A stretch of DNA of 64,000 bases from Escherichia phage WPEC1, in sequence record PV659873.1, one strand, 5' to 3'. The position numbers were made by a program, and so were the translations under genes. Of this stretch, positions 1 to 3,425 are shown one piece after another. Under the pieces are notes generated by a model. The model saw only the letters and a list, made by a program, of their open reading frames with translations, had not been told where the DNA came from and did not search any database. How positions within the stretch are numbered: position 1 is the stretch's first letter; the number at the start of each line of letters is the position of its first letter.

Positions 1-780
1 ATTACGATATACTACACCTTCAGCTTTCTCAAGTAAAGCTTTTTCATAGAAAGCATCAAACTGTTCTTGGTTTTCAATATACTCTGTATGAACTACACAA
101 ATAAGCTCATCAAGACCATAATCTTCAACTACTGCCTTAAGAGCAGCAAGAACATCAACACGTTTTTCAAACGGTAGATCTGGAACTGGAATATCGTATA
201 CGTAATAATTCAGCAAAGGTGTATTTGCATTATGCTTCTTCCAGGCGCTGTTAATTTGTTGCAGACTAAGGACACCTAACCCAGCAAACACTTCACCATC
301 AAGAGGATGACCAACAACTTCACTAATAAAGTTTGGAATACCTTTCCAATGAGGTGGCAGGTTATACACTTCCCCAGCTTTTGATAAACACTCTCCTTTC
401 ATGTTAATCATAGAACGTAACCCGTTCAGTTTGTATTGTGCATAACCAGGGAACACAACCCTTTCAGGATAATCTTTATAATCCTGGCATTTCATTGGTG
501 TGGAAGGAACATGGTTTTCAGCTTCTTCTTTTGTTTTATAATAACCATTCTTTAACTGTTTTGTCCATTTGGCAAAAGCTTCAAGTTCAGCTTGTTCTTC
601 CGGTGTTGTTTCATTGGAGCGACCAATGTTTTTTGCTTCTGCTGTATAAGATTTTTCTGTGATTTTTCCACCTACTCTTCCATGAGCTACAGTAACAACT
701 GCACCATCTGTATACACTGTCCACTGTTTAAGTTTTCCTTTTGAATCTTTACCATACAGCGTTTGATTTGTTTGTTGCAT
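1..780 (-). CDS. ATP-dependent nucleic-acid ligase (DNA ligase-like), partial; 3' end lies beyond window start
   Basis: Minus-strand ORF, ATG at 780-778 with GGAGG SD. Own translation shows nucleotidyltransferase motifs in order: PMKCQDY..AQYKLNGLR (motif I, KxNG), LDGEVF (III), YYVYD (IIIa), EGVVYR (IV). Not in ORF track because no stop inside window. Confidence 0.7.
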   Translation of the reverse strand, partial: MQQTNQTLYGKDSKGKLKQWTVYTDGAVVTVAHGRVGGKITEKSYTAEAKNIGRSNETTPEEQAELEAFAKWTKQLKNGYYKTKEEAENHVPSTPMKCQDYKDYPERVVFPGYAQYKLNGLRSMINMKGECLSKAGEVYNLPPHWKGIPNFISEVVGHPLDGEVFAGLGVLSLQQINSAWKKHNANTPLLNYYVYDIPVPDLPFEKRVDVLAALKAVVEDYGLDELICVVHTEYIENQEQFDAFYEKALLEKAEGVVYRN

Positions 781-1001
781 TAGTCCTCCCATTTAAAAAC
801 TGAAATTTTCAATCTGTTACACACTTCATCCAAATCTGCGTCGAGTAACGTTGTAGATGTTGCCAACATGTAATCAATGCTTGTGAAACCTTGCCCTTTG
901 GCATAGTCAAGCATATCTTCATACATATCTTCAAGATCACCGTCATCAAAAGTAGCTAAAAAATCCTCGTCTCCGCTACGAACATAAAATGCAGTACTCA
1001 T
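780..1001 (-). CDS. hypothetical protein (73 aa, acidic)
   Basis: ORF track; tightly packed with neighbours; no recognisable motif. Confidence 0.45.
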   Translation of the reverse strand: MSTAFYVRSGDEDFLATFDDGDLEDMYEDMLDYAKGQGFTSIDYMLATSTTLLDADLDEVCNRLKISVFKWED

Positions 1002-1189
1002 TCTTCTTCATCCCAAGATTCAAAAGCACAACAATCATCGGTTTCTATAATACCAACACGTCCGCAGGTATTGCAAGTGATTTTATCCCCGTAGAATAAA
1101 TAATTTTTATCACCCTCTGTGTTTACAGTTATGTCATTACTACCACAAGGGCAAGTCAGCCAACCAACAACAACGATATCTTTTTTCAT
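998..1189 (-). CDS. small zinc-ribbon protein
   Basis: 63 aa with CPCG...CNTCG cysteine pairs; overlaps neighbour stop/start. Confidence 0.45.
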   Translation of the reverse strand: MKKDIVVVGWLTCPCGSNDITVNTEGDKNYLFYGDKITCNTCGRVGIIETDDCCAFESWDEEE

Positions 1190-1198
1190 AATCCCTCC

Positions 1199-1525
1199 TT
1201 AAGCGTTAAGTTCGTTGTTGAGTTCGTAAATCTCTTCTTGAAGAGCATCAATCTCTTCCTCCAAACGGGAGATCTCTTCTTTTAGATATACCATTTCGGA
1301 TTCTTTCTCTTCTAATTCATTTTCAAATTTTACTTTATTAGCCTCATTTTCATAATGCAGTTCAGCGTAATCATCACGCATTTGTTCAATAAGATGAATC
1401 AGAGACAAGATATAATTGTCTCCCGTTTCATCACGCCACTCTTCACCGTGACGGAGAACGGTAATTCGTCCAGTATCTTCATCTAAAATTGTCTCATATT
1501 TACGATCATCTGTATAAATCTGCAT
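1199..1525 (-). CDS. hypothetical coiled-coil protein
   Basis: 108 aa, E/L-rich heptad-like C-terminus. Confidence 0.45.
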   Translation of the reverse strand: MQIYTDDRKYETILDEDTGRITVLRHGEEWRDETGDNYILSLIHLIEQMRDDYAELHYENEANKVKFENELEEKESEMVYLKEEISRLEEEIDALQEEIYELNNELNA

Positions 1526-1534
1526 TATTTCTCC

Positions 1535-1939
1535 TTATTGAAGTTTAAGTGAACCACGAAGACGTTTCTCTTGCTGATCACGGATATATTGTGGAACCTC
1601 GTGAATTGAATCATTACCGTGCCTATTTTCAACAACTAAAGAGATAACTTGATAACCAAACTCTTCAGCAAGAGCTAGATAAGGTTTAAGTTCTTTCTCT
1701 GTGGTTGAAGTATTAGAAACAATAATCTTGTTAAGATTAGATGCCATAGCATCACGAACAATACCCTGACACCATGCGTGTGCTTTACCTACATTTTCTG
1801 GCTTCCAATCGTAAACACCACTCTCTGTGTAATGATATTGATCTGCCTCACAGATAGGCCAATAACCTTCAGAAATAATTTCTGCTACTGTAGATTTACC
1901 AGCACCTGAAACACCACGTAAAATGATAAGTTGTTTCAT
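1535..1939 (-). CDS. P-loop polynucleotide 5'-kinase-like protein
   Basis: Walker A GVSGAGKST at N-terminus and IIVSNTSTT segment, resembling the T4 Pnk kinase domain layout; directly adjacent to RNA ligase. Confidence 0.6.
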   Translation of the reverse strand: MKQLIILRGVSGAGKSTVAEIISEGYWPICEADQYHYTESGVYDWKPENVGKAHAWCQGIVRDAMASNLNKIIVSNTSTTEKELKPYLALAEEFGYQVISLVVENRHGNDSIHEVPQYIRDQQEKRLRGSLKLQ

Positions 1940-2872
1940 TTATCCTCCAAAAAAGTTTTCGATTTTTTCACGTCGCTCTTGCTGATTTAAAGCAGCCCAT
2001 TGAATCTTCGTAAAATTATTTCGAATCCATTCTAACAAAGCGTAATATTCTTCGTCAACCATTTGTTTGGCATTTTTTGGATTATCCCAAATCAGATCCC
2101 ACTTTTTATCTCCACCGCGCATAAGAAACTTCTTAGTAAGATAGTGTGGTGATTTAATTTTTAAAAGTAAGTTGAACGGATAGTTTGTTTCACGAACTAC
2201 AAACCCTTCGTGTTTACAATGTTTAGACATTTCAACAACATCTGAAAACTTAACCATTGGATGAACTTCAGGACGCTTAAATTTGGTGACAGAAGCAATT
2301 CCATCAAGAGCACCTTCAGGTAACATAAAACTTGTCCCATCAGGATTTTGAATTCTGGCACCAATTAAGTATGCACCTGGTTCTTCTTCGACAATATGCG
2401 GATCAGAAGGATCACAGATTTCAAAAAGGAAAGTTGCTTTTGCACTCTCTGTCCATTTGATGAAATGTTCTATGTCATCACACTCTGAAACAATATGATT
2501 CTTTGCAATACTTGCAAAATCTGATTCAAGGCTTCCTGTTGTCGATACAATAAGTTGACCTTTATATACACCTACAGAGGCCATAAAACCATTTACTTTA
2601 CGAACCACATCTACAAGTTCATCCGCTGGTAGATCTGTGCCATTCTCAAAACGATTAAAAATCTTAGTGAAAGGCCAAATAACAACATTGTCATCAGCAT
2701 CAACAACGATTCCGCGACATTCTAGAAGACGAGAATCAATGCTCCATAAGTTATCCCAGAAAACTTTGTTCTTATACTTAAGAACAGATAGACCAGAATA
2801 CTCTCCTTCTTTATATGTTTTCTTATGAACTAAACCTTTTTCAACCAAATCGTCGCAATTAAATTTAGCCAC
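1940..2872 (-). CDS. RNA ligase (T4 Rnl1-like)
   Basis: 310 aa; LLECRGIVVD and KVNGFMA (KxNG motif I) resemble T4 gene 63 product; stop/start abut kinase and phosphoesterase. Confidence 0.65.
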   Translation of the reverse strand: MAKFNCDDLVEKGLVHKKTYKEGEYSGLSVLKYKNKVFWDNLWSIDSRLLECRGIVVDADDNVVIWPFTKIFNRFENGTDLPADELVDVVRKVNGFMASVGVYKGQLIVSTTGSLESDFASIAKNHIVSECDDIEHFIKWTESAKATFLFEICDPSDPHIVEEEPGAYLIGARIQNPDGTSFMLPEGALDGIASVTKFKRPEVHPMVKFSDVVEMSKHCKHEGFVVRETNYPFNLLLKIKSPHYLTKKFLMRGGDKKWDLIWDNPKNAKQMVDEEYYALLEWIRNNFTKIQWAALNQQERREKIENFFGG

Positions 2873-2873
2873 A

Positions 2874-3425
2874 TTATTCTCCTTTGATTATTTTGTGATG
2901 GTCTACAGTCACGATATCTCGTTTACTCATCATAGAAATTATCTCATCAAAATGCAAGATTTTTCCGTGTGCATCCCAACCCACATCTAACATTTTACCA
3001 TAAGCTTCATCAGGGAAAGATCCGTGGGAATGCCCGTGTAGCATGATTGATCCACGACCTTGTTTATTCCAGGAGGCCATAGGGTAATGGCTTAAGACGA
3101 AGAACAGCTTCTGATATTTCACTTCGTCATAATACACCACTTCTCCATACTCTGCAAGCACTTCTTGGTGTTTGCTGTAGTCATGGTTCCCAACACAGTA
3201 GGTGATATCTCCTTGGAGACGGGAAGCAATTTTACGGGTATCTTCTTCAGTTCCGAAACAGAAGTCGCCCAAATGCCACATCTTAACACCAGGAGTAGTA
3301 GCACATTTGTTCCATGCTTCGATCAAGGCTTCTGTCATGTGGTCCATATCTTCCCACGGACGATATTCAGGAGCAAACTCTCGAATACGTTTATGCATAA
3401 AATGCAAATCGCTTGTAATAAACAT
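2874..3425 (-). CDS. calcineurin-like metallophosphoesterase (candidate 3'-phosphatase / cyclic phosphodiesterase)
   Basis: Motifs DLHF, GDFCFG, GNHD, HGHSHG typical of binuclear metallophosphoesterases. Confidence 0.6.
   Translation of the reverse strand: MFITSDLHFMHKRIREFAPEYRPWEDMDHMTEALIEAWNKCATTPGVKMWHLGDFCFGTEEDTRKIASRLQGDITYCVGNHDYSKHQEVLAEYGEVVYYDEVKYQKLFFVLSHYPMASWNKQGRGSIMLHGHSHGSFPDEAYGKMLDVGWDAHGKILHFDEIISMMSKRDIVTVDHHKIIKGE

Follow-up and report, generated by a model that had tools for sequence, protein, structure and literature searches.

A putative split RNA-repair cassette of kinase, RNA ligase and metallophosphoesterase genes in the phAPEC8-like Escherichia phage WPEC1

Genes of the cassette

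The window analysed here is a stretch of 64,000 nucleotides of Escherichia phage WPEC1 (PV659873.1), which megablast assigned to Phapecoctavirus (phAPEC8-like, Stephanstirmvirinae; E. coli myovirus). Its first 6 kb were 100% identical to Escherichia phages WPEC4, WPEC2 and WPEC6 and 98% identical to many Phapecoctavirus genomes in the same search. Three abutting genes near the start of the window, all on the minus strand, encode a polynucleotide 5'-kinase-like P-loop kinase, an ATP-dependent RNA ligase and a calcineurin-type binuclear metallophosphoesterase (MPE). The coordinates given for them in an earlier note on this DNA are exactly those of the open reading frames (ORFs), and they are listed with the other features in Table 1. 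These genes probably form a split RNA heal-and-seal repair module analogous to Pnkp and Rnl1 of phage T4, and most likely they mend RNAs, such as tRNAs, that bacterial defence nucleases have cut. The GenBank labels in relatives of WPEC1 are putative RNA ligase, putative polynucleotide kinase or ATPase, and phosphoesterase or metallophosphatase. The cassette genes have already been annotated in GenBank, they have already been interpreted in the literature, and the system is of a largely known kind.

The cassette ORFs are packed for coupled translation. The kinase ATG directly adjoins the ligase stop codon, a gap of 1 nt lies between the MPE stop codon and the ligase start, and the MPE start shares 1 nt with the upstream ORF (3425-3781). 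In the ORF listing, a run of minus-strand ORFs extends from the window start to ~6.6 kb, and the cassette is part of one long leftward gene string that also includes a DNA ligase and MazG. Operon continuity is assumed because of this gene packing and because there are no annotated terminators in the record of the reference phage Schickermooser (NC_048196). A promoter and terminator scan of positions 1-8100 gave counts at chance level and did not define the operon.

Catalytic residues and fold of the three enzymes

The kinase matched the Pfam family AAA_33 (E value 2.7e-10) and the PHROGs families phrog_2071 and phrog_505, both labelled 'polynucleotide kinase'. An alignment of 26 sequences, with homologues taken from phage loci, showed R8, G9, G14, K15 and T17 (P-loop) and D33 to be invariant; the Walker A pattern G9-x4-G14-K15-S-T17 and the catalytic aspartate D33 are therefore both present, and D33 aligns with Asp35, the catalytic general base of T4 Pnkp. 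The top full-length matches of the family profile in the PDB were T4 Pnkp (1ltq/1ly1), Capnocytophaga Pnkp1 (4xrp), the Pnk domain of Clostridium thermocellum (4gp7) and mammalian PNKP, with E values of ~1e-8, and a single-sequence PDB search with the kinase gave P-loop matches only. Regarding these data, family profiles and alignment place the kinase in the PNK clade, in agreement with the Pnk-like kinase described in the earlier note. The three profile families named there (RNA_lig_T4_1, AAA_33/PNK and Metallophos) were all matched.

The ligase matched RNA_lig_T4_1 (E 3.8e-15, 56.8 bits against a cutoff of 28.3), a Pfam family (PF09511) to which T4 Rnl1 and the Trl1 ligase domain belong, and phrog_562 (RNA ligase) of PHROGs. 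In the protein collection searched, the ligase has 1743 homologues. All nucleotidyltransferase motifs are present, namely motif I (K92-x-N94-G95), motif III (E151), motif IV (E222-G223) and motif V (K238-x-K240), and these residues, like R53 and K70, do not vary among 72 distinct ligases of phage loci; position 72 is F or Y in the 72 homologues. R53, K70 and F72 correspond to R54, K75 and F77 of T4 Rnl1, aligning with the T4 stretches 'LECRG' and 'EKFFN', and these Arg, Lys and Phe residues of the T4 N-terminal subdomain contact ATP.

T4 Rnl1 was the sole PDB match of the ligase profile (E 3e-10, residues 48-238), and hhalign against the T4 Rnl1 fragment 51-249 gave 96.9% probability (E 1.7e-10); a single-sequence PDB search with the ligase gave no match. 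The AlphaFold2 (AF2) model of the ligase has a pLDDT (predicted local distance difference test) of 92.3 and a pTM (predicted TM-score) of 0.88. With this model, Foldseek placed fungal Trl1 ligase domains (9qw7, 6n0v, 6n67) level with T4 Rnl1 (5tt6, 9do4) at the top, at ~1e-13, with TM-scores of 0.60-0.67 for both groups over 349-373 alignment columns for Trl1 versus 286-297 for T4. The ligase is thus predicted to have the Rnl1/Trl1 fold, and its last ~65 residues are modelled as six short helices.

The MPE matched Metallophos in Pfam (E 2.8e-5, 25.1 bits against a cutoff of 21.5) and phrog_547 (phosphoesterase) in PHROGs (E 5e-56). H8, G53-D54, G79-N80-H81, H113 and G131-H132-x-H134 are invariant in 28 homologues and D6 is nearly invariant; to judge by these positions, the MPE retains every metal-binding motif for two metals, and the calcineurin-type assignment of the earlier note is borne out. 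The best PDB match of the MPE profile was Aquifex aq_1665 (1xm7; E 3.9e-24), and GpdQ-type and YfcE-type MPEs matched weakly.

Linkage across phage loci

The linkage of the three genes was surveyed in 80 IMG/VR loci, out of at least 333 confirmed, with ligases 39-85% identical to that of WPEC1. A kinase homologue lay at most 3 kb from the ligase in 63 of the 80 loci and an MPE homologue in 65; both did so in 51 loci and neither in three. Both partners were found in 42 of the 57 loci having full flanks. At least five gene orders occur in all, including MPE-ligase-kinase (24 loci), kinase-ligase-MPE (15), ligase-MPE-kinase (3) and one divergent arrangement. Moreover, about 11 loci (L047, L048, L050, L052-L055, L058, L060, L061 and L063) encode a single protein of 418-426 aa in which the kinase precedes the ligase as an N-terminal fusion. 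The linkage survives the reshuffled order and, together with the fusions, points to a shared pathway; this comparison is strong evidence that kinase, ligase and MPE constitute one functional module. The flanks of the fusion loci hold genes for homing-endonuclease-like proteins, thioredoxin, an Rv2179c-like 3'-5' exoribonuclease and DNA ligase.

The same results bear on the idea that the three proteins share no pathway, the ligase being mainly a tail-fibre attachment factor (as T4 gp63), the kinase a nucleotide kinase, and the MPE an enzyme of nucleotide signals or metabolism. The PHROG label 'RNA ligase and tail fiber protein attachment catalyst' fits this idea, as do the generic character of the AAA_33 kinase family and surroundings rich in nucleotide and NAD metabolism genes, and the N-terminal domain of T4 rnlA has been described as essential under laboratory conditions (HIDEN-SEQ preprint). 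However, all three enzymes keep their catalytic residues invariant among diverged homologues, the kinase and the ligase can be fused, the linkage outlasts the shuffling of gene order, and at full length the kinase is matched best by polynucleotide kinases and not by nucleotide kinases, which leaves the absence of a shared pathway barely credible.

Concerning the wider neighbourhood, the ORFs within 5 kb of the ligase in the 80 loci were clustered and representatives were scanned against Pfam. An ATP-dependent DNA ligase was present in 38 loci, a NamPT-like phosphoribosyltransferase in 30, a PRPP-synthetase-like protein in 27, an HD domain in 20, the Rv2179c-like exoribonuclease in 15, sirtuin and MazG in 11 each, a Macro domain in 9-14, a PTP 'Swiss-army-knife' phosphatase in 9 and NMNAT-Nudix in 6. 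At least one NAD-related gene was found in 41 loci. The pair of NamPT-like and PRPP-synthetase-like genes (L005-L048 and others) resembles phage NAD+ salvage or reconstitution pathways. The sirtuin is confined to V5-like loci, in 11 of which it adjoins the kinase, between the kinase and the DNA ligase. By these counts, the ligase has a near-constant partner in the MPE, and sirtuin and cREC (8-12 loci; a cyclic-phosphate-processing receiver-like protein described below) are lineage-restricted.

Proposed RNA repair and the points against it

Metal-independent host RNases, among them the anticodon nucleases PrrC and RloC, HEPN and MazF-type toxins, Cas13 and some colicins, leave breaks that carry a 2',3'-cyclic phosphate and a 5'-OH. 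In the proposed repair, the 134-aa kinase would phosphorylate the 5'-OH end, and the binuclear MPE, possibly assisted by the cREC protein, would open and remove the phosphate (cyclic or 3'), which leaves a 3'-OH fit for ligation. The ligase would then self-adenylate on Lys92, pass the AMP to the 5'-phosphate and seal the break. We infer the enzymatic activities, the RNA substrate, the order of the steps and the host nuclease countered, and tRNA is a likely substrate. The same reading of the V5-like neighbourhood was reached earlier by comparative genomics (PMC9503650).

Several results weigh against this reading. Regarding the kinase, the 26-sequence alignment has no conserved counterparts of R38 and R126 of T4 Pnkp: the position after the catalytic aspartate is Y/F-rich ('EADxY'), R106 in 'ENRHG' is missing from many homologues, and an invariant H113-x-V115-P motif is found in the family in place of the T4 arginines. 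The search of the PDB with the MPE profile retrieved neither lambda phosphatase nor the phosphatase domain of C. thermocellum Pnkp (CthPnkp), and aq_1665, the nearest solved relative, is uncharacterised. With respect to linkage, an MPE homologue was not found nearby in 12 loci, the fusion loci included, and the fusion locus L050 showed no replacement phosphatase within ~3 kb; furthermore, many of the survey loci come from related lineages, so the counts do not represent independent events. In addition, no experimental work on the cassette was found in the literature.

The remaining points against it concern the ligase. Its score with the model of the T4 RnlA equivalog (NCBIfam TIGR02308) was 24.1 bits versus a cutoff of 242.25, over residues 43-166. 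The C-terminal all-helical domain of T4 Rnl1 (residues 255-374) confers tRNA specificity, and the phage ligase shows no detectable counterpart of it, as the profile match ends at residue 238; the hhalign match also ends at motif V (to residue 246), with a T4 input (51-249) that could not reach the C-domain. Because this ligase is without a detectable T4-type tRNA-specificity domain, tRNA is only a putative target. On these comparisons the ligase appears 'Rnl1-like' at the superfamily level only and is no T4 RnlA equivalog. The wording 'Rnl1-like RNA ligase' of the earlier note thus stands for the superfamily (RNA_lig_T4_1, motifs and fold), and does not extend to the equivalog or to the tRNA-specificity domain. 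Its heal-and-seal reading has good computational support from motifs, folds, linkage and fusions, with that restriction on the ligase, and the idea itself is not new.

Trl1-like chemistry as an alternative

The same parts could also work with Trl1-like chemistry, in which the 3' end would be healed to 3'-OH/2'-phosphate and the ligase, like the tRNA ligases of fungi and plants, would need this 2'-phosphate. The junction 2'-phosphate would afterwards be removed with NAD+ by a phage sirtuin or by host KptA, and Macro or NADAR proteins would clear the ADP-ribose by-products. On balance this alternative is unlikely, with several residues of the ligase speaking for it. Asn94 (in KxNG) and His159 (8 residues after Glu151 of motif III) are invariant in 72 of 72 ligases, and T4 Rnl1 carries Asp and Ile at these positions. 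The ligase stretch 'EICDPSDPHIVE' holds His159, and Trl1 has 'E(L/Y)CDDSFEEHIL' there. In hhalign with two PDB sequences of Trl1 (9qw7 and 6n67), Asn94 fell on the Asn of the Trl1 KxNG and His159 on the Trl1 His (CthLIG His227). Asn150, His227, Arg334 and Arg337 of CthLIG bind a 2'-phosphate mimic and enforce the 2'-phosphate requirement; these residues of the 2'-phosphate site have been called unique to the fungal Trl1 clade, His227 being placed 9 residues after the motif III Glu and Arg334 and Arg337 9 and 12 residues after motif V (PMC6379707, PMC11404444). In the phage ligase, Lys248 and Arg252 are invariant at 8 and 12 residues after Lys240 of motif V, in the first helix of the C-domain, but their equivalence to the Trl1 Arg pair at +9 and +12 is positional only, since the C-domains have no detectable similarity: hhalign of the C-terminal segments of the ligase with the Trl1 C-domain gave 5% probability and aligned only motifs IV-V.

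The Foldseek result, in which the Trl1 ligase domain is level with T4 Rnl1, is also consistent with this chemistry; nevertheless, the ligase is closer overall to T4 Rnl1 (hhalign E 1.7e-10) than to Trl1 (E 1.6e-5, 79% probability). Nor is KxNG specific to 2'-phosphate-dependent ligases, as the phage DNA ligase reads KLNG. The genomic context can be viewed in two ways. The sirtuin abuts the kinase in the 11 V5-like loci and has a 55%-identical orthologue in Schickermooser, a KptA-like role has been proposed for the V5 sirtuin by Iyer et al. (PMC9503650), and 41 of the 80 loci carry NAD-related genes no more than 5 kb from the ligase; but the NAD-salvage genes may merely cluster with other counter-defence genes, and the most constant partner of the ligase is an MPE capable of phosphomonoesterase activity, which fits complete phosphate removal. 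Neither the window nor the 80 loci yielded a KptA/Tpt1 homologue, a weak negative obtained with an approximate query sequence, and the putative 2H enzyme of the window is not recognisable as one. It is doubtful that this ligase family is a distinct phage clade, neither true Rnl1 nor Rnl6, which would read the 2'-phosphate via Asn94, His159, Lys248 and Arg252 and leave a junction 2'-phosphate.

Comparison with known systems

The T4 pair Pnkp and Rnl1 offers the same three activities that are proposed for the phage cassette: a 5'-kinase, a phosphoesterase for the 3' end and an ATP-dependent RNA ligase whose adenylyltransferase domain is of the Rnl1 type. The P-loop and the catalytic Asp of the T4 Pnkp kinase are matched by the phage kinase, which, unlike T4 Pnkp, is a stand-alone protein of 134 aa. 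The phage phosphoesterase is a binuclear MPE, whereas T4 Pnkp has a DxDxT (HAD) domain; the helical C-domain of the phage ligase has 65 aa, in contrast to the 120-aa tRNA-specificity domain of T4 Rnl1; and motif I is KxNG in the phage and KEDG in T4 Rnl1. The T4 pair is established as a counter to PrrC (PMC3592404, PMC2610378).

The Pnkp/Hen1 system of Clostridium thermocellum likewise combines a PNK-clade kinase, a dinuclear MPE healer and an ATP-dependent ligase, and the dinuclear phosphatase of CthPnkp clears 2',3'-cyclic phosphate and 3'-phosphate ends (PMC2190708). Therefore, the separate MPE in place of the T4 HAD-type domain is as described in the earlier note, but an MPE as healer is not new. 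CthPnkp carries its three modules in one polypeptide, while the phage has separate genes; its MPE is of the lambda-phosphatase clade, while that of the phage is of the COG4186/aq_1665 type; and its ligase is of the Rnl4 type and needs Hen1, and the system includes a 2'-O-methyltransferase, while the phage ligase is of the Rnl1/Trl1 type and no Hen1 was seen.

Fungal and plant Trl1 (LIG-KIN-CPD), with Tpt1, is also a heal-and-seal system in which kinase and ligase are joined, as in some phage fusions. The Trl1 ligase fold matches the phage ligase as well as T4 Rnl1 does, and KxNG and the His after motif III are common to both. The domain order is KIN-LIG in the phage fusions and LIG-KIN-CPD in Trl1; the phage cassette is without the 2H CPD domain of Trl1, and the C-domain is not detectably related.

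The closest description is that of Iyer, Burroughs, Anantharaman and Aravind (2022), who reported a sirtuin-centred RNA-repair neighbourhood in Escherichia phage V5 and Proteus phage Mydo (PMC9503650, section 3.7.3). It holds the same families, that is, a T4-like tRNA ligase, cREC, a nucleotide kinase, MazG and a calcineurin-like phosphoesterase, and all five occur in one leftward gene string in the Phapecoctavirus reference genomes. Orthologues are present in six V5-like loci of the survey (L006-L010 and L016), with ligases 58-80% identical. The sirtuin is adjacent in the V5 type, whereas in WPEC1 it lies outside the cassette and the window and three small ORFs are there instead. Furthermore, cREC is upstream of the MPE in WPEC1 and between ligase and kinase in the V5-like loci, and the MPE, near-constant in the 80-locus survey, is occasional in the V5/Mydo description (PMC9503650).

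Neighbouring genes of the cassette

Table 1. Position of the cassette genes and of other features in the WPEC1 window
Feature	Position	Strand	Matches and remarks
DNA ligase (ATP-dependent), N-terminal 260 codons, cut by window start	1..780	-	phrog_114, E 1.7e-53
Polynucleotide 5'-kinase-like P-loop kinase, 134 aa	1535..1939	-	AAA_33, phrog_2071, phrog_505; putative 5'-OH end healing
ATP-dependent RNA ligase, Rnl1/Trl1 (PF09511) superfamily, 310 aa, GTG start	1940..2872	-	RNA_lig_T4_1; putative sealing
Calcineurin-type binuclear MPE, 183 aa, COG4186/aq_1665 type	2874..3425	-	Metallophos; putative 2',3'-cyclic phosphate or 3'-phosphate healing
Protein of 118 aa, between MPE and cREC	3425..3781	-	phrog_839, E 7e-47; membership in the module uncertain
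cREC (cyclic-phosphate-processing receiver-like) protein, 118 aa	3941..4297	-	PF20274 cREC_REC, E 1.6e-13, 51.6 bits vs 27
MazG-type nucleotide pyrophosphohydrolase	10429..11154	+	Annotated 'nucleotide pyrophosphohydrolase' or 'NTP-PPase superfamily'
Protein of 201 aa	42744..43349	+	phrog_22504; 34 homologues, narrow distribution
HAD-type hydrolase	43351-44007	+	After ORF 42744-43349 and anaerobic ribonucleotide reductase genes
ComF-like PRTase_3	44000-44827	+	E 2e-41
Macro domain	44840-45325	+	Weak DarG-like and Tk.4-like matches
tRNA region	8052-9484
tRNA region	24544-25015
tRNA region	30543-30610	-
Junction stretches	9571-10206, 13025-13326, 22759-24609, 25601-27445, ~29973-31600, 35046-35432, 48973-49283

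DNA ligase and the small ORFs: The DNA-ligase-like gene that the earlier note had placed beside the cassette is there, as its phrog_114 match indicates. ORF 1-780 translates without stops, and the full-length DNA ligase of the reference genomes has 371 aa and is annotated as ATP-dependent. Its motif I (residues ~117-122) reads K-L-N-G-L-R, with Asn for the usual Asp, and the V5-like orthologue has KLDGVR. Three small ORFs at 780-1525 (minus strand) occupy the slot held by the sirtuin in V5-like phages. One encodes a coiled-coil protein of 108 aa that has been wrongly labelled either 'hol-like chemotaxis' or 'DNA polymerase I', and the other two encode a 63-aa protein with zinc-ribbon-like cysteines (CxC...CxxC) and an acidic protein of 73 aa. 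In the reference genomes, MazG comes immediately downstream of the DNA ligase and shares its operon; in the window the scrambled assembly has displaced and inverted it, positions 10207-13024 being Schickermooser 47408-44591 in inverted orientation.

The presence of the DNA ligase gene raises a further alternative, in which kinase and MPE would clean DNA ends (5'-OH, 3'-phosphate) for the adjacent DNA ligase in phage DNA repair or replication. The DNA ligase belongs to the same gene string, in 38 of the 80 loci a DNA ligase gene and the RNA ligase are at most 5 kb apart, and RdgC-like and exonuclease genes come later in the same operon. T4 Pnkp, moreover, also acts on DNA. Nevertheless, kinase and MPE track the RNA ligase far more tightly than the DNA ligase, and in the fusions found the kinase is joined to the RNA ligase and never to the DNA ligase. 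The match of the MPE to PdeM, the ligase-associated phosphoesterase of the DNA-damage response, is weak (E 0.0024, 17 bits) and far under the 150-bit cutoff, and the partnership with cREC and sirtuin speaks for chemistry on RNA and cyclic phosphates. A role in cleaning DNA ends is thus very unlikely.

cREC and phrog_839 proteins: The cREC protein carries the acidic motifs WLDDLR and FDNDLGE. Its homologue is situated between ligase and kinase in the six V5-like loci mentioned above and adjoins the ligase in a further locus (L018). The cREC domain was defined via its linkage to RNA ligases by Aravind's group (PMC7824862), and the linkage is also given in PMC9503650. The cREC gene is an accessory member of the repair module, and the earlier note missed both this gene and the link to NAD+/ADP-ribose genes. 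The ORF between the MPE and cREC had no Pfam or NCBIfam match; tblastn found a phrog_839 homologue near the ligase in only 5 fetched loci, 2 of which (L005 and L064) are among the viral 80. Some GenBank records label this ORF 'anti-restriction nuclease', a label without visible support.

Sirtuin and other NAD-related genes: No sirtuin was detected in the window by tblastn with the V5-like sirtuin and the Sir2 of Schickermooser. A Sir2 orthologue is encoded in Schickermooser (NC_048196 18770-19585), ~30 kb from the cassette, and is 55% identical to the sirtuin of the V5-like cassette. Schickermooser also encodes a DUF1768/NADAR protein (NC_048196 136123-136665). The NAD/ADP-ribose toolkit is therefore present in this reference phage but dispersed around its genome.

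Distant features and assembly of the window

The 201-aa protein encoded at 42744-43349 had been proposed in the earlier note as a 2H phosphoesterase. It gave no Pfam or NCBIfam match and its PHROG family is of unknown function. A 2H identity is not supported, as it shows neither a 2H profile match nor the bilobed LigT-like fold with two HxT/S motifs. The protein is predicted to consist of two ferredoxin-like repeats, each opening with a strand that bears a conserved His motif (H28-x-H30-x-T32 and E122-x-H124-x-K126), and H30-x-T32 and H124-x-K126 probably prompted the earlier 2H call. The HAD-type, ComF-like and Macro genes at 43351-45325 may form an ADP-ribose or nucleotide-processing cluster. 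In 14 other phage loci, the RNA ligase has a homologue of this Macro protein at a distance of 1-6 kb.

It should be noted that the window is collinear with the reference genomes only over positions 1-9570; beyond these, large blocks are inverted or relocated, and the block junctions (Table 1) are pieces of 75-155 bp repeated from elsewhere in the genome. This patchwork looks like a scrambled short-read mis-assembly and not real biology, and the cassette itself is unaffected by it. The plural 'tRNA clusters' of the earlier note does not hold either: Schickermooser and WPEC4 have one contiguous cluster, in the order Met, Arg, Ser, (Tyr), Asn, Thr, Gly, Gln, Pro, Ile, Met, and the split is an artefact of assembly. 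The tRNA split, a duplicated tRNA-Gln and a lone reversed tRNA-Gln coincide with the assembly junctions. A tRNA-Tyr is annotated in WPEC4 at the equivalent of window positions 8749-8836 and was not called by ARAGORN.

Significance of the cassette

Bacterial defences that cleave tRNA or other RNA (PrrC, RloC, Cas13, HEPN and MazF toxins) are common. To our knowledge, T4 Pnkp and Rnl1 are the sole phage repair counter-measure understood experimentally. If Trl1-like chemistry were true, a ligase leaving a 2'-phosphate would give bacterial Tpt1/KptA a natural substrate, and it would explain why the cassettes sit among NAD-salvage, sirtuin and Macro genes. The substrates of bacterial Tpt1/KptA are unexplained, and bacteria are thought to be without fungal-type ligases (PMC11417386). 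As for the heal-and-seal module analogous to that of T4, the paradigm of Pnkp and Rnl1 would extend to the V5-like and phAPEC8-like phages of therapy collections if the cassette is shown to work. A working cassette would in addition reveal the host defences that these phages are able to overcome, and the split form is much more widespread, with at least 333 confirmed relatives in IMG/VR.

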